The position numbers and the translations under genes were made by a program. The notes below the pieces were generated by a model that was not told the DNA's origin, did no database searches, and saw nothing but the letters and a program-made list of their open reading frames with translations. Shown here one piece after another: positions 12,264 to 25,639 of a stretch of DNA of 64,000 nt. The number at the start of each line of letters is the position of its first letter. The first letter of the stretch is position 1. The stretch comes from Paecilomyces variotii (Eukaryota), in NCBI GenBank assembly GCA_004022145.1, contig RCNU01000001.1. The stretch is one strand, 5' to 3'.

Positions 12264-14460
12264 TCAAGCGGTTTTCACCCGCTCGGCAAATCGTACATCC
12301 CTTCGCAAGTGTGACGGGGCCCGTCGCTCTGCCCTCGTGTTCACAGATGACGAGAGGAGACGATATGTTGAGCGAGGACGAGGGCACCCTTTCAGAAGAT
12401 AATCCTTGCAGCCATTCGCCTTATCCTGCATTTGAGACAATCGCCGGCGAAGCTCCATCGATCTGATGCGATCTTCTGCCTTGATTACAATCATATCGTC
12501 TATGATGAGGTGGAGTAGGTCGTGAATAAGTTGCGAGCACTGCGGCAGAGTGCGAAGCTCCTCAACCCACGTACGAACCCCACGGCGTACTTCGGCATCA
12601 TCACCAGATGGAAGAACAGTAAAGAAGTTATCCTCGCTAATGCCCAGAGCTGAAATCTCACTGCGGTGCTCGGCGAAATTCTCGATCTCCGCGTACCCCT
12701 TTAGGAGCCAGGTGATGAACTCAAGGTACAGACAGCCGAGGCTCCAGATGTCGTACACGCGAGAGACGGGTCTGAAGATTTTGCATTCGGGAGGTTCGTA
12801 AGTAGGGGAAAAGACCACACCGGTTGGGTCGATGTTTGAGCGAGAATCACGACCGTGGAATCTCCCAAGGCCAAAATCAGCGATCTGTAAAACACCATCC
12901 GGATCATCAATGCCGTCCATGAGCTGGAAAAACAGGATATTCTCAGGCTTTATATCGCCATGACGCCCGAATATCTTCTCTTCCTCGTCTAGTTTTATCT
13001 CTGAAATTACCTGCATGTTTGCGTCCCGGTTGACTAGGGATACTGGCTGCGAGAAGGTCGGACGAAACCCGTGGATATGCACCAATCCGTCGGCTATTCC
13101 TATCATCTGCTTGAGCGTCCAGCGGATGGTCCGTTCGTCAAATGGTGGACGAGGCCGCTGCTCCCAGAAGGTGCGGAGATTAAAGTCGGCGTATTGAAAG
13201 ACAAAATGCCACTCATCCCTGTGACGAAAGGAGGCCAGCAGCTTGATCAGATGGCTATGAGTTGCGATCCTCCTCAGAGCCTCGTGTTCTTTTTTGAATT
13301 CCCCTTCATCCAAGGACTTGAGCTTTTTGATCGCTACCAAGGGGATGTTGCCCTGCACAAGAGTTAACTTGATTTCCCTGGCGAATGGTATACATGGATA
13401 ACGTACTTTTCTATCTCGCTTCAGGGGCAAGTCATGATGCGCGTGATGAATCCGGCAAGCAAACACCTTGCTATATGCACCTTCCTTTACTTCGTGGTTC
13501 TTGTCGTCATCTAATAACTTGACGAAAGGTACGATGCGATCTTCCAGATTATCGCTTCCCTGATACTCGAAAAAATGCGCCGAAATCCACTGCTGTTTTT
13601 CGTCGAATTTCTCTCTCTGTCTCCTCTGCCAGCCACTCATACACTGGACTGGCTCATAGGCGTCTTCTCGTTTCACATGTAGCCGGTAATCGCTATCGTT
13701 CGGTGGGCGCCAAAAGGGAATGTTTCTGTCACAAATGCGTTCTTCAAGAAAAGCTTCAATCTCCCGGGGCTTCTTAAGTGAGACAAGGATCGCAAAAAGC
13801 CCTCTGGCCTGTTTAGATGTACATTCCGCAATGTCGTCGGCCTTGTGCTGGCCGAGACCTTCATTTTGAAGAATCACTCGGACGGTTTCTCTGGTGATCA
13901 GTCGCTTCAGGCTATCTCGTGGGATGAATTTCTGACGTCGATCGTAGGAACATTCAACGCGTGCGTCCTCGAGTTGCTCCTTGAGGGTCTTGGCCATAGT
14001 GTTTACGGATAAGATGCTGTTAGAACGAGATCGTGATGTGGACTCTCGTGTTTCCATCTGGATTGGGAGAGAGGCAATTCCAGAATTGTCTAGTGACAAT
14101 GTAGGGGACAGCCCTGAACGTTGGCTTGAGACGGGTCTCATGTCTCCATTAGATGAAATGCCTTCAATGCTGGTCTTTGGAGAATGGAGTACTTTATCGT
14201 CTGGTGATATTATACCAGGTCTGTTCCCCGCAGTCTCGGAGTTGGTGGAAAGAGATCTGCCAGCCTGATATACATTTTGGCCTATATAGGGCGCGGGAGA
14301 TGAAGGTGAAGGGTGCTAGAAGGCAACCAAATGGGTTGATCTTGTTACAAGGCGATGATTACCTGACAGTAGCGAAGAATGTACATGACAGGCAACTGAC
14401 TATTTGGTTGGGCAGCGAAGGGTTCAAGTGAAGCTTCTTGTTCATCATATTTTCACCCAT
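12264..14460 (-). CDS. Fungal-type Ser/Thr protein kinase; probable exons 14460-14401, 14316-13407, 13352-12264 (5' exon tentative; minimal ORF starts at 14141)
   Basis: EGAYSKV Gly-loop, VAIKKL, RHGDIKPENIL, IADFGL, PTYEPPE and DIWSLGCLYLEFITW: all catalytic motifs intact. There is a 54-nt GTACGT..CAG in-frame intron, and the frame stays open upstream of 14141 to a CTAG acceptor. Confidence 0.88.
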
Positions 14461-15276
14461 TGTCTGCTATCCGAAGCGCCCTACGTAATTTTCATTAGCC
14501 GCGGGATGTGCAGTTCATTAGCAAGAAAGCTTCCCATGTGCTGGATGATCTAAGATAGAGAGCTGGTGCATTAAGCACATACGACCTTGTCTGGGTGCAC
14601 CTTTCGCCAGAGCCTCAGCCTAGATGCACATATGCAGTCCGGCACTATTGCGATCAAGACCAAGAGCCTCTTGCAAAAAAGCGCCCCGCTTCTGCCTAGT
14701 GGGATCAATGTGTTCATGTGAACACTAAACTTGTCTATGAGATGTGATGTTGAGAGCTGAAGATCTAATTATCCGAGCGGCGTTTGGGTAGGAAGATAAA
14801 CCCTCCTAGGACAGCTACATTACAGTGACGCAGAATAGATGCTCAAGGCGTTTACCCTGAACCACCCTATGAAGAATATATCTTATCGATCAATAGACCA
14901 AACATGTTCTAATTCTGAGGCTGAAGATGTCTTGAGTGCTCTAGCCATTCATTGTGACAGGATATATTCATCCCGTGTCTTGCAGGGAACTCGATTGGCC
15001 GGGCTGACTCACCGCAGCCTGTTATAGAAGGATCAAACTGTCGGGTTACTAAGTACTATTTGTTGTTTTTTCTTCTATAGGCTTTTTACGAAGTAAGAGG
15101 TTTGGTACTCGTTTCTTTTTTGTTAAGCTCTCGATGTCCCCCTTCCCCTGGGTGCCGCAGTAAAGAATGATAAGATCTAAATAGTACAATTATAACGACA
15201 TAGTAAGCATGTTTTAAAACGACCTCTATAACCTGGTATGTTCCAGCCATCTACAATCAGCCATGGCTACTACAGA

Positions 15277-17320
15277 TCAGTGCTTCAGCATTTTTGTATT
15301 GGAAGTGCATACTCCCTCCGTCAACACATCAGGCAAGGAACCACCCGGCACGATTCCCGTTTCCAGATCTGAGGACTTTCGCGATGGCTTCCATGGCAGC
15401 AACCAGCTAAGAAGCTTCACTTTACCGAGTGTTCTTGGCGGTTGGGCCTCATTGTCTGGCAATTCCACAGTTATAGTACTCAGATGAACGAACAACCACC
15501 AAAGGACGACCGTTAGAAAGGTCAGGGGTATCGAAATAGCTGCGAGAATCCAGGCTTCTGTCGATACGTGCGTCTTTCCATCATTATCAGTTTTGACGAA
15601 CGTCGTTGAAAAGAAGTTCTGAATTTTCTCAGTGATTGTGTCGTCTCTAGATAGGAACAGGATTAACTTACGGCGACAACAGTCGTTGGAAGATAGACCA
15701 AGCTGATGACAGTGAGAACCTTGACAGCTGATGCATCTAGAGCACTTTTGAGCTGTGAATAGAATAGTTAGACCATAAGTATTATATAGTGGTCGGATGT
15801 AGAGCTAACTAACCGTAAGAGCTGACAGAAACTTGCCATCCCGTTGCGATGCGATGCCTAAATCTTTCAGGGCCTTTGCTTCTTCGTAGTCCAGGAGGGT
15901 TGACAACTGAAGGATAAAACTTAGTAAATGCATGTCTTGATAATCTTAAAGACAGTCGACTCACCATTTGTGCAGTCGATCGCACTTTTTCTGACAAGAA
16001 CTCGGCACGTTGGACGTACATATCTGCTTCTCGAACATAGCTGTTAAACTCTTCCAGGAAGTACACACAAGTCTGCACTCGCTCAGTGGAATTATCTAAG
16101 CAGTCCTTTTGACACTGGTCGCGGACCTGAACTATATTGTTCAACATGTTTACGAGGATCATCTTCATATCGATGGTGTACTCTTCGAGCTCGTGGATGT
16201 GTTGGCGATCGAGAAAGGTGATGTTTCCATCCACCTGCTGAGCCACTGATCTGTCTTTCATCGAGAGCTGAGCAAGTAGAATCTTTTCTGTCTATTATGT
16301 GAAAAAAATCCCTCACAGTGTAAGTGGGCTTGAAATTGTTTCTCAGAATTGGAGCTACCGACCTGTTCCTTCAATTTGTTCTCCACCCACGCCATGTAAT
16401 CTTTCCAGTCCCTCAAGCTATCAGTCATAAGAACCCAATGGACATACCAAGGCGAAATGGGTTCTTCAGCCTCTCGTGCTCTCTCAACGCCGCGAAGAAT
16501 ATGCCTCTCAGCAAATAAAGATGGTGCCACTAGCAGAAATGTAGATATTGGTCGGATCTCTCGAGAGGTAATAGCTAAGTCTGGAATGTCACCAGGGGCA
16601 ATTTTATGATATATTGCAGTCTGTCGAATCGACCAGGGCGATTGGCCATCAGTGAGATCTCGTCCATTGGGTTCCACGCGTCGGAGAATATACGAAAATT
16701 CTACATCCGCGTCAGCTATGGTTCAGACTGAATGGATGGCAATAGTAACTAGGACTGACCGCAGGCATTATTGGATCCTGTTCTTCCTACGGCAAAATCG
16801 CGGAATTGAAACCCTGCGAAGCCAAATTCGTTCTCGTTGTGTCTCCAGCCAAAGGAAAGCATGTGTTGCCAGAAACGCGGAAATATTTTGTATTGCCTTG
16901 CAAATTCTTCGAAGACATTGCGACAGATCTTGAGCCTTCCCCAGGTATTCTCGTGTCGGATAATGAAAACTTGAGATTGATGTACTGAGGCCTGAACTTG
17001 AAGTTAATACAATACAATACTGAATAACGCTCGGTATTCAAGCTGGCCTCAAGTAGTATAGAATCTGAAAAGATAGATGCTGCAACAACGCATATTGAAC
17101 TACATACCTTTTTCAAAGAATAAAGCTGCTCAAGGTCCGCGACCACCTGTATTGTAGAATGGTCTTTATCATTTTCCCCACACATGCTATTCCCACGTGC
17201 ATCTAGAGGTAGATAATATAATTGAATACCATCATCGGTAGATCTAAACAAAAAGGGGGCTTTTTTATTGACTTTGATTTCCAGTGATGCTCTTTCGGCT
17301 TCAAGACACATTGAAGCCAT
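15277..17320 (-). CDS. CorA-like (2-TM) membrane protein, ~541 aa, 7 exons: 17320-17108, 16991-16760, 16700-16363, 16291-15965, 15906-15814, 15752-15672, 15618-15277
   Basis: All six GT..AG introns join without stops (1626 nt). The product has SYILRRVEPNGR..PWSIRQTAIYH, a long helical stalk, and a CorA-type C-terminus DASAVKVLTVISLVYLPTTVVANFFSTTF...WILAAISIPLTFLTVVLWWLF. Confidence 0.82.
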
Positions 17321-18260
17321 TATCACCACTTAATTTATCGCCGGTGTTAAATCTGAACACCTTGGCAGAATCGATATCGTTACAGCGATTTAAACATAAC
17401 CCTTCTATATTGCCTTTCAAGTCTTCCTTCTTCCTCAGACTGTCTAAATAAGCCTGGTAAGAACTCTACGGCGAAGTTCGCAATCAAATCAAGTATCTCC
17501 CTTCCTTTTCACCCCACGCCCGGAAGCCCTTCACTCGAAGATGCATTTTCAGCTCGAAAACTGTGATTTTTCTTTTTTAGCATTATGCATGCCATTTCAG
17601 CTGCATGTCAGAGCCTCACACAACCCCGCCTTCGGCAATATCTCAGGGTGAGCGGTAAGAGGACCGGGTTTGCGGGAGAGTAAGCGCATACACAGTGCCA
17701 CTCGGTTGTGTCTGCTGCACGAGGCAGCAAATAAAGAGCGAGCTAGGCAATGAAGGTGGGCATAACACAGACCGCATCATGTCAGCCTTTATAACTCATG
17801 TCTAGTTCTTTTTACAATTTTGTCGACTTCTCGCTGGATACCTAACTTAGCCCATGTGATCCTGTGGGCAAGACAGCCTTCTATCAAAGATGCCCTTCGC
17901 TAAGAGACGTTGACGGTTCACCAGCGCTTGGAATGTCAGGCATGAATGCAGTACTAGGGTGGCTCGTAAGTTCTTATCGTTATGCATCACGAGGCATCCT
18001 TGCTAGCTTGAGAATGGCTTCATAGGTGGTTGGAATCTTGCGCAGGGAAAGTCGGTGTGAACATCACTTGACTGTTTGAGTTAATATGCGGCTGTTATTA
18101 AAATGACATCTTTTCATTGTACAAATCCGAAAAAGCGACTTCCGCTAAGTATGCAGTATGACAGCATTTAAACGAAAATAAGTTGAAACATGAATGAGAG
18201 AGAAGAAAAAAAAAATAATTGATAACTATCGGTAATCTGAATGGTGACTGGGGATATTGG

Positions 18261-18637
18261 TCATCGCCATCTTGCCATTCTTTGACAAGAACTAATCTGA
18301 CGCTGTGTAGTTATATCAGAACCTCTCACGAGCAGAATAATAAAAAAAGAAAAGAAAAGACAAACTGAGTCTTACAGCGTTAATAATATCGTTCGAGGAG
18401 GACGGCCTGTAAATCTTATAACGGTTGAGCCTCAGCTTTTAGTGCAAGAGCGAGTTAGCATACTTAACATGGAAGATCATAGATCAGCAATTAGGTGATT
18501 CAGACCTCAACGAGAAAGTTGTTTTGGCCTTTCTCCGATGTCCCGTACACGTCTCGAAGGAGTTCAATAAGTGCTCGAGGATTGATATACTTGCTCTCGA
18601 TCACTTGAGGCTCAGGATTATACCGATAGTTTGACAT
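18261..18637 (-). CDS. Microprotein B, 77 aa, 3 exons (18637-18506, 18435-18376, 18302-18261): MSNYRYNPEPQVIESKYINPRALIELLRDVYGTSEKGQNNFLVE/LRLNRYKIYRPSSSNDIINA/RQISSCQRMARWR
   Basis: Two phase-0 GT..AG introns with GCTAAC and TCTGAT branch-like sites. Clear similarity and the same intron placement as neighbouring microprotein A. Absent from the ORF track. Confidence 0.72.
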
Positions 18638-18839
18638 TTCGGACCAGTTATTGACGTGGGAAGTTGAACGTTGCATTTTGATAAAAATAATATTGCTTTA
18701 TTTGATGGACAAGGTTATAGGAAAAAGCATGTATTGATTGATTATCTATACTGTGAAAACCCCCTATGGAAAACTTTCGGATTGAGGCTTATTGCCATGG
18801 ACGCCCCTATTTATAATCCTACTCTATCATGTCAAACAT

Positions 18840-19261
18840 CTAGCCCTCGGTAGAACATGATTGAATCTGCTCCTAAGTATTGACGGGTCAAGATCAGCGG
18901 TAGCGCTAGAAATGCAGGACTAGGACGCAAGGGTAGGATGCGCAATGAGCGAGGCTCGGATCATACCTCGGTCAAATGAGCAGGAGCGACAATTACGAGC
19001 CGCCCAAGACGCTCCTATCAGGAGGATGTCAGCACGGTAAGAATAATGTGACCAGTTAATTGAGCTGAATATCTTGCGCTGAAATGTACTTCCCTGTCAA
19101 GAGAACACAGGTGTCACAGTCTCGGACAAGACCATGTGCACGAAGGAGAAAATGATTTGACTCACTTTAACTTCAAAACTTCCTTCAGGGAATAACTGCT
19201 TCAGAAGAGCGATAAGGCGAATGGGTTGGATGTAGCGAGATGAGAGAACTTGCTGGGCCAT
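18840..19261 (-). CDS. Microprotein A, 58 aa, 3 exons (19261-19166, 19014-18967, 18872-18840): MAQQVLSSRYIQPIRLIALLKQLFPEGSFEVK/ERLGRLVIVAPAHLTE/EQIQSCSTEG
   Basis: Canonical GTGAGT and GTATGA donors, GCTGAC/GCTGAT branch sites, TAG acceptors, both introns phase 0. Paralogous to microprotein B. Confidence 0.78.
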
Positions 19262-20270
19262 GGTTCCTTTCAGCTGTGTGAATCCTTGAATGATCATATG
19301 GCGGATCTGTGATCCTGATTGCGCCTAGGGAGGCGAAGTCTATCGAATATACGCCTTGAGCGTCTCACTAAATATAATCACCTCGAGGATATTCACCGGT
19401 TCGTGCGGTGGCAAAGTTCCTCTCTCCTTCGCCTCAAGTGTAGCTGAATGGAATCAGAGCATTTTGTTATCATCCAATGCTAATGCAAATAAGTGCCCGG
19501 TGGCAGAAGCTGAAAGTTGGGGGCACAAGGTGTTCAAGGAGGAAAGTATGATCATGCAAGTCATCAACGTGTATCATTCATAGACTAATACTGCAAGACG
19601 TGGCTGGATCTTAGTAGATTTAAATTCCCAAGTATGAGCCGAAAATTACCTTGCCAGTCTTGATCACCTTGAGGCTCTAATGAGAGCTCTAAGGTTGTCT
19701 AATTCCAATTTGTCAGTTGCTTATTTCAGGCAATATTGGATCTGCGTGCAGTAGACCTATTCATCTTGTCACTAGCAATCACTGAAATAATCCCTTTCCA
19801 CAGTTCAGCAAGCCAAGTATCAACAGAAAAGCTGCTTGGATTTTGCCTATTGGGTTCTCATTTATCTACGCTGTTGTCCTCGATCGTCCTCTAACTATGT
19901 ATATCGTTATTCATTGGATCTGATTTTTTTTTTTCTCCCACTACTTGTCTTGAACAGTCGATTAACTTGGAATCGTGTCTTAGAGTCGGGGTTATTGAGT
20001 TATGTCATTGAATATCCTTTGCCCCTCGTCTGGATCAATGCTTATTTGCCTGAATCCTAGTCTGCTTTATCTATTCCTCGCATTTAGCTATTAGACCCTT
20101 TCTCTATTGACATAAGCATGTCGTAGTTCTACGTTAGTAAATCTGATATAATTTGTAATCATAACTTTTTATCGGGGATTCAGCACGTATATAAAATAGA
20201 GCAGGGTATTTCTACAATTTCCTTAAATAGTCTATTTCATGTAAACCAATCGATAAAATTGATCGACCGA

Positions 20271-22216
20271 TTAATCTGAAAACAACCTCCCCAGAATACC
20301 CAGTTCCTCTCTTCGTTTCTTCTTCTCCCTATCTCGCTTGATTTTCCAATACGACGCCCACGCTGCGCCGGTTAGGTAGCCGCCTAGATGGGCCCAGTGG
20401 TCTAACGCAGCGACGCGGAAGGGGGTGAAGAGGCTGATGGCTTCGAAGAGCACGATGCCTGTGAGGAAGACGGAGCCACGGGCAGAGATGGTGTCTTGCC
20501 ACTCGCGAGGGAGGAACCAGAGGGTGAGTTTGTCGCTGAGTTTTGTGTGTTAGTGTTGGATTGGAGAAATTGGGGAGCTTAGGGAATAGGGTACGTACTT
20601 TGAGTGAATCATACACCATGCAGCGACGAGACCGGCAATGGCGCCGGAGGCACCGAGAGAGGTTACGGTCAATTGCTTCGTGAGCACATGTGCGCTGAGA
20701 GAGGTAAGGGAGCCGATCACGCCGGATGCCATGAATAGGGCTAGGAAGTTACCACGGCCGATTTCGTCGTGGACTGAATTAGACGGCGGAGTTAATTTAG
20801 CCCTCGAACTGGAAAAGGAGTCGAGGTTATGAACTTACGTCTTGTTCCGATGAACCATAGAATCACCATGTTTGTAGCAAGATGCTTCACCTGCTGATGA
20901 CTGAAGACACTGCCCACCACGCTCAACGCGTGCGGGTAGATAGGCACGCTGATGAAGTACTTGTTGAGCATTCTCCATGCGGGTGGCCAGAATTTCCACA
21001 AGGTAAAGACACTTAGGTTGAGACCTATGATGGCCAGGACAGTTGCTGCCGCCGGCGGAATGTCTCGCCACATACGGTCCTTGTGAGATGGAGGGTCATA
21101 CGTCTCGGCGAACACATAGCACAGACCAAGGGTAAGCAGGGTCACGCCAAGAGCAGGAAGAATTCGGCGGGCCTAGCAGAAGTCAGTGGAGCCGATTATA
21201 TAGTTGCGGTACGCCGGGCACTTACGGTTGTCAGGTTCGAGGTGTCGATATCATTGTTCGTAGCGCGCAGATGATGCTTTTGGATCCAAGCCAGCAGCGG
21301 ACGCTCACTGGGATCAGCACGGGGACGAGCTTTCAGGATCGTTAGAAACTGGCCATATAAAGACACCCCAGATGAGAAGATAATACCCACCCTCAACGAC
21401 CGCTGATTCTTCAAATTTCTGCAGTTCCGTATTCCTTTTCAGCGCCTTGGTGATCTTCTCGTAATCCTTGGCTTCGCCCTCCAGCCATTCTTTGCGCTTC
21501 TGCTCCTGTTCCGCCAAGAGGCGCGCCTCGTTCTGTTCTCGATATTCCTGCAAAACACTCTTTCCCCAGGGATCATTGGCCTTGCCCAATTCCGCATCAT
21601 AGTGGCCGCTCTGCGGCTTATACAGGCTCCTCAGCCTCTCCTCTTCTTCTTGTTCCTCCCGTTCGATCCGTGCGAGAATAGCAGCATCCTCGTCCATTGG
21701 GCGATTCTTCCGCAGCCATTGTAGACCGGCATCGATAACGAACGGGCGCGCAGAGCGGGCTATGTCGGACGGAAGGTCGAGGTCGAGAGTACCGTTGATA
21801 CGACGGCCTTGTAGGACGGAAAGAATGCGATTTCCCATTGCTGGAGAGATTTTATTCGGGCCAAAGATCTTGTTGATCTCCGCGGCGGAGAGCGGTTTAG
21901 AGCTGATGGGGACGCCATGTTCGACCGGTTCGTTGGGTTTGGGAGCTGGTGTACTTTTCGTCTTAGCAGATCTCGTAAGGAACGAGGAAGGAGGTTGATT
22001 TGAGTTGAAAGATGTGCGGGGGAAAGTCAAATATCCCAGTCCTAGCGGGGAGATGAGCTTTCTCTGTGAACTATAGAGGCGCTGCGCGGGCAACTCGCGG
22101 AAGTACGAGTACGAAACCGCCGGGCGGAATATGGCTGGGCCAGAGAGGAGAGAGTTGGAGGATGCCCGGAGCCCCGGGCATGGGATCCGCCATCCTATGG
22201 AGAATACATTGCTCAT
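20271..22216 (-). CDS. PCP1: Mitochondrial rhomboid intramembrane protease (Pcp1/PARL-like), multi-exon
   Basis: Arg/Ser-rich presequence, FSHQ..HLATNM, catalytic SLGASGA and DHWAHLGG across ORFs 21314..22222, 20792..21145, 20550..20732 and 20271..20453. Confidence 0.85.
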
Positions 22217-24328: not shown

Positions 24329-25639
24329 TCACGCCGTACTCTGTGGCTGCTGTGGCTGCTGTTGCTGTTGTTGAGCCCAGTGACCTGCAATAGCTTCCGG
24401 AGGAATCTTCTCCTGCTTGATGAACAGGTCGATGAGGGGTTGCATCGGCTCCATCTCCTTGTCAGCGACCAGTTTGTAGTATTTGGCGACAGTGACGAAG
24501 TGGACGAAGCTCATATTCAGCATCTCATGGCGGTTGATGTGCCAGAACGGATCGAGCCAGTGTCCATGATACAGGTGCGCGTAGCAGCGAAACATCTGCT
24601 TCATGATACCCTGGCAGTCCTTGTAGAAGGTCTGAGGGAAGCCGCTGGACTTTCCAATCCAGTCGTCTCCACTCGCAGCATCTCCAACGGCAGTGCGAGG
24701 CACACCATTGACCGGGTCCGTAGGGAACATGACGGGGTCATGGATCTTGCTGACAATCCACTTCTCGACACGATTGATAAACTTGGGGGCAGAAATCTTT
24801 GCCGCACGTCCGTCCACCAGCCATGTGTATGTCAATCTAAAGATCCGTCAGTGACATCGTCGACAGCATCTGGATTGAGAGAACGAAACTGACCGGCCAG
24901 CTGACATGGTGGGGCAGGTGTTTTCATTGCAGATTGGAAGCCCAGTCACGGTGTTCACTTCTTGGATCACCTGGAGCATACCGTGGAGTAGACGGTACTG
25001 CTCGACAACTGTTGTGTATTAGCCCCGCCATTCTAGAACCGCTGCGGCTGATATCGACATACTCTGATGAGCCAACCACTCTCCCAACTCGACATTTTTG
25101 GGACAGGCACACAAGGTCAAGAAGTTTCCCTTCACATTCAACGGGGCGTACTTCTCCTGGAAGAAATACTTGGCCGAGTCATTGTTCTCGTTGACGGTCG
25201 CGGCGCTGTCCACCGAGAGGGTCGAGTTGACGGAGGGGGAATGGGACATGACGCCCCCCTGAGCTGGATATGCCACGGGAGCCTGGTTTGGGGCACCGTT
25301 GTTCATCTTGGGCGAGTTGTTTTTGTTGTTACCTCCCCTGCCAAACCCCTGGCGACTAGATAGATGAAGACAAAGATATCAGCAACACAGTTTCAGATGA
25401 AAACCATCAACCCATTCACTGATGGGGAGTGAGCTGGATGCGCAACATGTCTGAGCAGGTGAGACCAGTGTATTTAAAGGCAAGGGAGCCTTTGCAGTGT
25501 TGGGGCGCACATGGTCCTGTCATTCAGAAGCACGGGGTAAAGGGGGGTCGAGGAGCGGAGAGCGATAGGATAGGGTGTCGGGGGGTAAGCCAGCAAAAGT
25601 TGGGGAATGCACTTACACGCTCTGAAAGAAGGTCGCCAT
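24329..25639 (-). CDS. MOB2: Mob1/phocein-family kinase activator Mob2 (NDR/Cbk1 coactivator), multi-exon
   Basis: VKGNFLTLCACPKNVELGEWLAHQ, TYTWL and QMFRCYAHLYHGHW motifs; first exon MATFFQSV followed by GTAAGT. Confidence 0.88.

Follow-up and report, generated by a model that had tools for sequence, protein, structure and literature searches.

A conserved tandem pair of spliced, paralogous microprotein genes in Paecilomyces variotii

Introduction

Can two reading frames for products of 58 and 77 amino acids (aa), each split over three exons and lying one behind the other on the same strand of a fungal contig, be genuine genes, and if so, why are they found together? The question is raised by a stretch of 64,000 nucleotides (nt) from contig RCNU01000001.1 of Paecilomyces variotii (assembly GCA_004022145.1), a fungus of the Eurotiales (Eurotiomycetes); this whole stretch is referred to below as the window. 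An original prediction, made from the letters of the window alone, placed a tandem pair of hidden three-exon microprotein genes at positions 18261-19261, which is the exact span from the stop codon of the downstream gene, here called B (77 aa), to the start codon of the upstream gene, A (58 aa), and proposed an old duplication kept under selection. The present analysis leads us to conclude that A and B are transcribed, spliced and polyadenylated genes for paralogous 58- and 77-aa microproteins and that A-type and B-type proteins are anciently separated subfamilies of one small-protein family. The A-then-B arrangement is very probably a conserved module. What the two proteins might do together is a more difficult matter, to which we return after presenting the evidence.

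Transcription and splicing

Are the genes used as predicted? Eleven RNA runs contain at least half of the sampled words of the stretch, and the RNA contigs of four runs from four studies (X1, X3, X4 and X5) were compared with positions 18000-19500. Both introns of gene A (151 and 94 nt) are removed at the exact predicted borders in X3, X4 and X5, and the same holds for intron 1 of gene B (70 nt) in X3 and X5. The support for splicing of B intron 2 is weaker: it consists of one contig of 60 nt (X3 record 4) that extends 30 nt to either side of the joint, short of the 31 nt set for bridging, and of the layout of X4 record 6, which implies that this intron is spliced, and the intron is kept in some RNA contigs (X3 record 3 and X5 record 15). 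Junctions in RNA, which the original prediction had named as a check, are thus exact for three of the four introns in two to three independent studies. The predicted exon translations were reproduced as well, so that the tandem pair of three-exon genes stands as described; all four introns are of the GT..AG kind, in phase 0, with fungal-type, branch-site-like CTRAC motifs. In X4, an alternative 49-nt joint from 18414 to 18464 (removing 18415-18463, GTATGC..AAG) replaces B intron 1, and this isoform would be non-productive, as the stop codon just past exon 1 stays in frame. Taken with the conservation described below, we regard A and B as almost certainly real coding genes.

Each gene has poly(A) sites of its own, recognized from runs of T at contig ends, with distinct sets after gene A and after gene B. 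Nevertheless, RNA contigs run unbroken from A into B (X3 record 5; X5 records 16 and 17), and X3 record 2 (2738 nt) reaches from the last exon of B to 2435 nt past the compared stretch, toward a larger gene on the same strand that we denote C. These data fit overlapping transcription units, read-through and co-transcription alike. The spacer between the stop codon of A and the start codon of B is 202 nt long and contains five ATGs, which speak against reinitiation; dicistronic translation of B is therefore unlikely, and B is probably translated from an mRNA of its own.

As to the starts of the two proteins, an in-frame ATG at 18676, 13 codons upstream, would lengthen B to 90 aa, and another, 12 codons upstream of the start of A (19262-19297, minus strand), would yield a 70-aa protein. 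The N-terminal lengths of the A-type homologues favour the 58-aa form of A.

The fourth run, X1, is an RNA-labelled metatranscriptome in which a single unspliced contig of 26 kb contains the whole stretch and differs from it at 10 bases and by a deletion of 1 nt. The contig probably stems from the genome of a different strain, the DNA of which entered the library.

One family of small proteins

To what do A and B belong? Gene B is already deposited, with identical sequence and the same three-exon model, as the P. variotii hypothetical protein DTO271D3_2542 / DTO212C5_553 (P0005). A phmmer search with this protein against 1.84 billion representatives gave 48 matches at E<=1e-3, two of which are the window's own products; one match, P0031 (471 aa, with 7 matched stretches), is a low-complexity repeat protein and was rejected as a relative. 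When 2248 candidates were searched with a profile of 13 well-spliced members, 131 proteins reached E<=1e-3. The 120 matches listed of these 131 are all named "hypothetical" or "uncharacterized" and none is shown with a Pfam domain; likewise, hmmscan against Pfam reported no family at E<=10 for P0005, P0001, P0002 and six further A-type or B-type proteins. The named B-type members come from three classes, with four lineages checked by taxonomy: the Eurotiomycetes, to which we assign Paecilomyces, Rasamsonia and several Aspergillus; the Leotiomycetes, which we take to include Botrytis, Monilinia, Lachnellula, Hyaloscypha and others; and the Dothideomycetes, presumably with Lepidopterella, Zopfia, Diplodia and Viridothelium. 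No Sordariomycete names are among the matches listed, from which no conclusion is drawn, given that small spliced genes are easily missed.

Gene B shares its length, both intron positions and its predicted fold with the deposited family, exemplified by DTO271D3_2542 (P. variotii), VTN77DRAFT_4354 (Rasamsonia byssochlamydoides) and K432DRAFT_430468 (Lepidopterella palustris), whereas the A-type partner and the paired arrangement are not present in the deposited annotations. Six locus tags of family members do not occur in the 8.4 million papers searched, and the ESM Atlas offers only unnamed Ascomycota clusters of similar length and no named one. The word "hidden" in the original prediction therefore fits A and does not fit B, for which a deposited three-exon model and many annotated homologues exist. 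No annotated protein was found for A: among proteins of 29-95 aa, its 54-aa unspliced open reading frame (ORF) matched only the window's own unspliced ORF call P0052, and its exon 1 occurs in no annotated protein of that length range in the collection searched.

The kinship of A and B, originally seen in an alignment made by eye, holds up under formal comparison and exceeds chance; the two proteins share 21 identities among 51 aligned residues. A hidden Markov model (HMM) of 16 family members that includes neither A nor B gives spliced A 21.8 bits, against 4.7 bits for the best of 200 shuffled sequences, and gives window B 82-83 bits. When all 2757 open fragments of the window in six frames are scanned, the top three places are taken by exons 1 and 2 of B and exon 1 of A, and no further copies of the family are found in the window. 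Finally, comparison of the A-type profile with the B-type profile gives a probability of 98% (E 3e-13, 58 columns).

The two introns lie at equivalent positions and in phase 0 in A and B, as had been predicted, and the same is true across the family. The positions can be counted in protein databases as many entries are ORF calls on DNA. Past the F-x-V-E motif at the intron 1 site, 61 sequences are spliced straight into L-R-L-N and 72 are read-through sequences; in 71 of these the next residue is V, reflecting the GT of the intron, and in one it is G. In 14 entries, intron 1 is retained in frame (48-81 nt), ending in Q (CAG) before L-R-L-N-R-Y. At the intron 2 site, past L-T-E, 45 sequences are spliced and 18 read through, beginning with V. 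It follows that many public B-type models (for instance, P0027, P0033 and P0044-P0050) are ORF calls truncated by reading through intron 1, which is a systematic annotation error.

Two ancient subfamilies and their arrangement

Is the pair a peculiarity of P. variotii? A scan of JGI metagenome contigs with the B-type alignment produced 101 pattern matches, from which nine loci were confirmed (L001-L009). In six of these nine contigs (L002, L005, L006, L007, L008 and L009), a whole or partial A-type ORF lies upstream of the B-type ORF on the same strand, and the fungi concerned are distant enough for their proteins to be ~40-45% identical to those of the window. Complete A-type ORFs are found in L007 (61 aa) and L009 (64 aa); L006 has the final 43 aa at the start of the contig; L002 retains intron 1 and L008 both introns of the A-type gene, and these retained introns occupy the two phase-0 sites also used in window A. 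The search for the family and its genomic neighbours that had been suggested with the original prediction thus yields homologues in which the A-then-B order recurs, the two genes being separated by a few hundred bases.

The assignment to types is reciprocal. An A-type HMM made from environmental sequences only (two full and two partial) gives window A 42.6 bits and window B 13.8 bits, and the B-type HMM gives 21.8 and 83.0 bits, respectively. Window A also carries the motifs by which A-type proteins are recognized, R-Y-x-[DQ], L-F-P and R-[LM]-G..I..[AT]-P. In a maximum-likelihood tree of six A-type and 28 B-type rows, a single branch parts the two types with support 96/92, and the split is present in 98% of 200 bootstrap trees. 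The A-type and the B-type form separate groups, each of which spans distant fungi, as expected of the old duplication originally proposed.

Furthermore, selection can be gauged from the coding sequences (CDS) of L006 and L007. Over the 43 shared codons of the A-type CDS there are 14 synonymous and 3 non-synonymous differences (proportions per site pS 0.42 and pN 0.031, ratio 0.07); over 70 codons of the B-type CDS there are 12 and 5 (pS 0.27, pN 0.030, ratio 0.11). The B CDS of these two contigs is free of insertions and deletions, while 45 columns of the spacer and 151 of the 3' untranslated region (UTR) contain gaps. The RNA contigs of P. variotii depart from the window in the CDS of B by two synonymous changes and by one N>K change, which lies in the variable N-terminal tail, and in gene A by three changes in intron 2 and one in the 3' UTR, with none in the exons. 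The numbers are small and all point in one direction: as far as these comparisons go, both ORFs are under purifying selection, in agreement with the claim that the pair is kept by selection.

Predicted structure

Does the predicted fold suggest a function? AlphaFold2 models B, from a 13-row alignment, with a mean predicted local distance difference test score (pLDDT) of 83 and a predicted template modelling score of 0.66; the elements are a strand (11-14), a helix (20-31), two strands (42-46 and 49-53) and a second helix (64-69). The A-type protein of L007, modelled from a 9-row alignment in which some rows are fragments, reaches pLDDT 78, and its elements follow one another as in B. The strand-helix-strand-strand-helix domain anticipated from the sequence thus reappears as a predicted beta-alpha-beta-beta-alpha fold in both types. 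Foldseek found no match in the PDB at E<=0.001 (best E 0.24). The best Z from VIA-align is 5.1, with a root-mean-square deviation of 3.1 over 60 residues, a level common for unrelated chains, and the top rows are mixed ferredoxin-like alpha/beta domains. Searches with the profiles against the sequences of solved structures gave for the B-type a best E of 0.037, to a photosystem subunit, and for the A-type E>=0.33, both of which were taken as noise.

Neither A nor B shows a signal peptide or a membrane segment, the maximum of 15-residue hydropathy being <=1.0. The isoelectric points set B (9.9, basic) apart from A (6.5, near neutral). The B-type hairpin N-N-F-R-V-E-L-R-L-N-R-Y-K-I-Y is near-invariant, and several of its positions are replaced in the A-type.

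Gene models and neighbourhood

The gene models and the neighbouring genes are listed in Table 1. The A/B pair sits in the gap between the rhomboid-domain gene and gene C.

Table 1. Coordinates of the A/B pair and of neighbouring genes in the window
Feature	Position	Strand	Remarks
Gene A CDS	19261-18840	minus	3 exons, 58 aa
Gene A coding exon 1	19166..19261	minus	32 aa, ATG 19261; joint 19014/19166 in X3, X4, X5 RNA contigs
Gene A intron 1	19015..19165	minus	151 nt, phase 0, GTGAGT..TGCTGAC..TAG; skipped in 3 of 4 RNA runs
Gene A exon 2	18967..19014	minus	16 aa; translation and RNA contigs
Gene A intron 2	18873..18966	minus	94 nt, phase 0, GTATGA..TAG; skipped in X3, X4, X5
Gene A exon 3, coding part	18840..18872	minus	10 aa and TAG stop
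Gene A 3' UTR	18664..18839	minus	poly(A) sites 18715 (X4, X5), 18664 (X4); overlaps gene B leader
Gene B CDS	18637-18261	minus	3 exons, 77 aa
Gene B coding exon 1	18506..18637	minus	44 aa from ATG 18637; deposited P0005 has same start
Gene B intron 1	18436..18505	minus	70 nt, phase 0, GTCTGA..TGCTAAC..AAG; skipped in X3, X5
Gene B exon 2	18376..18435	minus	20 aa; translation and RNA contigs
Gene B intron 2	18303..18375	minus	73 nt, phase 0, GTAAGA..CAG; partly retained in RNA; used in deposited P0005
Gene B exon 3, coding part	18261..18302	minus	13 aa and TGA stop; P0005 model
Gene B 3' UTR	18052..18260	minus	poly(A) sites 18052, 18056, 18072 (X5)
Gene C	15277..17320	minus	multi-exon, larger protein, C-terminal membrane segment, weak CorA-like signal
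Protein-kinase gene	12264-14315	minus	Pkinase E 1.5e-18, long N-terminal extension
Rhomboid-domain gene	20271-21172 (about)	minus	rhomboid domain
Mob1/phocein-family gene	24329-24847	minus	E 1.4e-27

Exon pieces of gene C were tested separately against Pfam, and the CorA-like signal lies on one 30-aa exon with 12.3 bits against a cut-off of 27 (PF01544); no other Pfam match was obtained from the exon pieces. A homologue of gene C appears in L004, which is the sole environmental contig reaching far enough downstream to show its position: there, ORF 1198-2346 lies 3' of the B-type gene on the same strand and matches gene C in tblastn with E 1e-40 and 33-40% identity in three pieces; this homologue has no match among the sequences of solved structures. 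No sequence similarity was found between A or B and gene C or the nearby kinase. There may be a conserved A-B-C cluster, for which two observations are too few to make a claim.

The base composition dips in this region: G+C is 0.42-0.45 over 14001-20000, a stretch that includes gene C, the two microprotein genes and long intergenic spacers, compared with ~0.50-0.53 in the flanks. The window overall has ~50% G+C and short introns of fungal type.

Do A and B act together?

The retention of the pair and the continuous RNA cover across both genes suggest co-expression of A and B and a joint role as one module. The explanation that we prefer overall, with a probability of roughly 0.55, is such a co-expressed module, likely a soluble hetero-oligomer. 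That A and B act together receives indirect support from the conserved A-then-B arrangement; a physical heteromer, taken by itself, is a tentative proposal. The open sheets of small ferredoxin-like domains are usually covered by a partner, and because the pairing of two diverged paralogues has been retained, the other paralogue would be the obvious candidate for this role. Two three-stranded, ferredoxin-like half-domains might thus pair via their open sheets or their edges. In such a complex, the basic and strongly constrained partner would be B, whose near-invariant polar and aromatic hairpin might contact a conserved ligand, be it a protein or a nucleic acid, and A would be the faster-evolving, near-neutral partner.

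Several observations weigh against the preferred explanation and have to be taken into account. The pattern used for the metagenome scan spans the junction of exons 1 and 2, so that all nine contigs are RNA-like and short (1.0-2.4 kb), with the B-type ORF unbroken, and do not represent genomic DNA context; an assembled short-read contig that covers two genes is no proof of a single transcript. The A-type gene is not evident everywhere: in L005 (121-470), a good exon-1-like ORF is present and neither exon 2 nor exon 3 can be recognised in any frame, so that this copy may be degenerate; L003 has just a weak exon-1-like match upstream (12.4 bits); and L001 and L004 show no A-type gene in the sequence upstream of B, which is 339 nt there. 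Moreover, P0009, P0011 and P0013 are fused models with two B-type first exons or two whole copies in one frame, so that some fungi may carry B-B tandems or exon-1 remnants, and the A partner is perhaps not universal. The A-type rows of the tree are long branches (1.9-4.5 changes per column), and their grouping could in part be long-branch attraction. The pN/pS ratios derive from one pair of sequences, from related fungi, with few sites, and in L006 and L007 the B-type proteins lack the conserved Cys close to their C-terminus. Neutral in this respect is a prediction of the complex of the L007 A-type and B-type proteins, run without supplied alignments, which gave a score of 0.01 against a mark of 0.34 and no verdict for or against binding.

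Which other scenarios could accommodate these findings? The most serious one is that the paralogues A and B are independent and make no contact with each other, each functioning alone or as a homo-oligomer, and that their adjacency is due to shared regulatory DNA, to overlapping transcription units or to inertia after the duplication. Such independence would be in keeping with the strong divergence of the two proteins (the 21 identities in 51 residues), with the loss in A of several residues that are invariant in the B-type, with the separate poly(A) sites behind each gene and with the fused B-B models of other fungi. However, gene order in Pezizomycotina erodes quickly, and the retention of A before B, with order and strand kept in six of nine contigs whose proteins are just ~40-45% identical to those of the window, suggests constraint. 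We therefore consider full independence of A and B to be rather unlikely.

A different possibility, compatible with an A-B heteromer, is that the two microproteins are accessory or regulatory subunits of the CorA-like product of gene C, the three genes forming a cluster on one strand. The matching strand and order of the gene C homologue behind the B-type gene of L004, along with the extension of RNA contig X3 record 2 from B toward gene C, agree with this idea, but these are two observations only, gene C itself has no significant Pfam match, with CorA well below its cut-off, and A and B resemble neither gene C nor the kinase in sequence, so that we regard such a role as improbable. As little credence can be given to the most elaborate version of the preferred explanation, according to which an obligate A-B heterodimer, made from overlapping or shared transcripts, would work with the CorA-like protein of gene C, in an operon-like three-gene cluster found in at least three classes of Pezizomycotina, with the A-type gene systematically unannotated. 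The roles entertained originally, as hetero-oligomeric adaptors, kinase substrates or antidotes, are conjectural, and we consider an antidote or drive element unlikely, given the wide distribution of the pair and the purifying selection acting on it. Finally, the notion that A, or both ORFs, are not functional protein genes, being instead a decaying duplicate or upstream ORFs that tune expression, could invoke the failure to find an annotated A protein, the replacement in A of residues invariant in the B-type, the continuous RNA cover over A, B and beyond, the partial retention of B intron 2 and the non-productive isoform in X4, but it is hardly tenable in view of the intact A ORF precisely spliced over three exons, the A-type orthologues in distant fungi with pN/pS of 0.07, the confident AlphaFold2 fold of an A-type protein and the poly(A) sites that both genes have of their own.

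Relation to known systems

Are there precedents for a co-expressed pair of paralogous microproteins such as A and B? Sloth1 and Sloth2 of Drosophila are reported to be paralogous peptides of small ORFs, encoded in one bicistronic mRNA, that regulate mitochondrial complex III (PMC9681215). By analogy, they are the nearest precedent in kind: in both cases, adjacent, co-expressed genes encode paralogous microproteins, and the Drosophila peptides offer a precedent for a pair that works in one pathway. The fungal pair differs in that dicistronic translation is unlikely, given the five ATGs in the spacer and the separate poly(A) sites, and we claim no sequence relationship. With regard to transcript organization, polycistronic or overlapping transcripts have been reported from long reads in mushroom-forming fungi (PMC4503453). 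The locus studied here is similar in that RNA contigs join A with B and B with gene C, and dissimilar in that assembled short-read contigs are unable to show single molecules.

In structural terms, the order of elements in A and B is that of ferredoxin-like domains, such as RRM, ACT, HMA and the N-domains of secretins, and the best structural matches are of this kind. The predicted fold departs from the ferredoxin-like beta-alpha-beta-beta-alpha-beta arrangement in that the last strand is vestigial, and the best Z is the 5.1 mentioned above. To our knowledge, neither A nor B carries the motifs of RRM, ACT, HMA or secretin N-domains.

Implications

What was already known of this system is the B-type family as a set of deposited hypothetical proteins; what is new is the A-type subfamily, the conserved pairing, the intron positions shared by the family and the evidence of selection, none of which was found in the literature searched, so far as its text was accessible. 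Filamentous fungi have scarcely been explored for functional microproteins, and the review consulted here draws mostly on yeast (PMC11413187). Against this background, the locus presents a conserved pair of microprotein genes that is expressed and under selection, has a confidently predicted fold and lacks any known relative. The B-type models that read through intron 1 provide a concrete correction for fungal annotation pipelines. Genome editing by CRISPR/Cas9 is reported for P. variotii (PMC8017634), and the two-gene, possibly three-gene, module is open to deletion and pull-down in this fungus. In more general terms, the pair offers a test case for the conserved adjacency of paralogous microprotein genes as a predictor of a physical complex.

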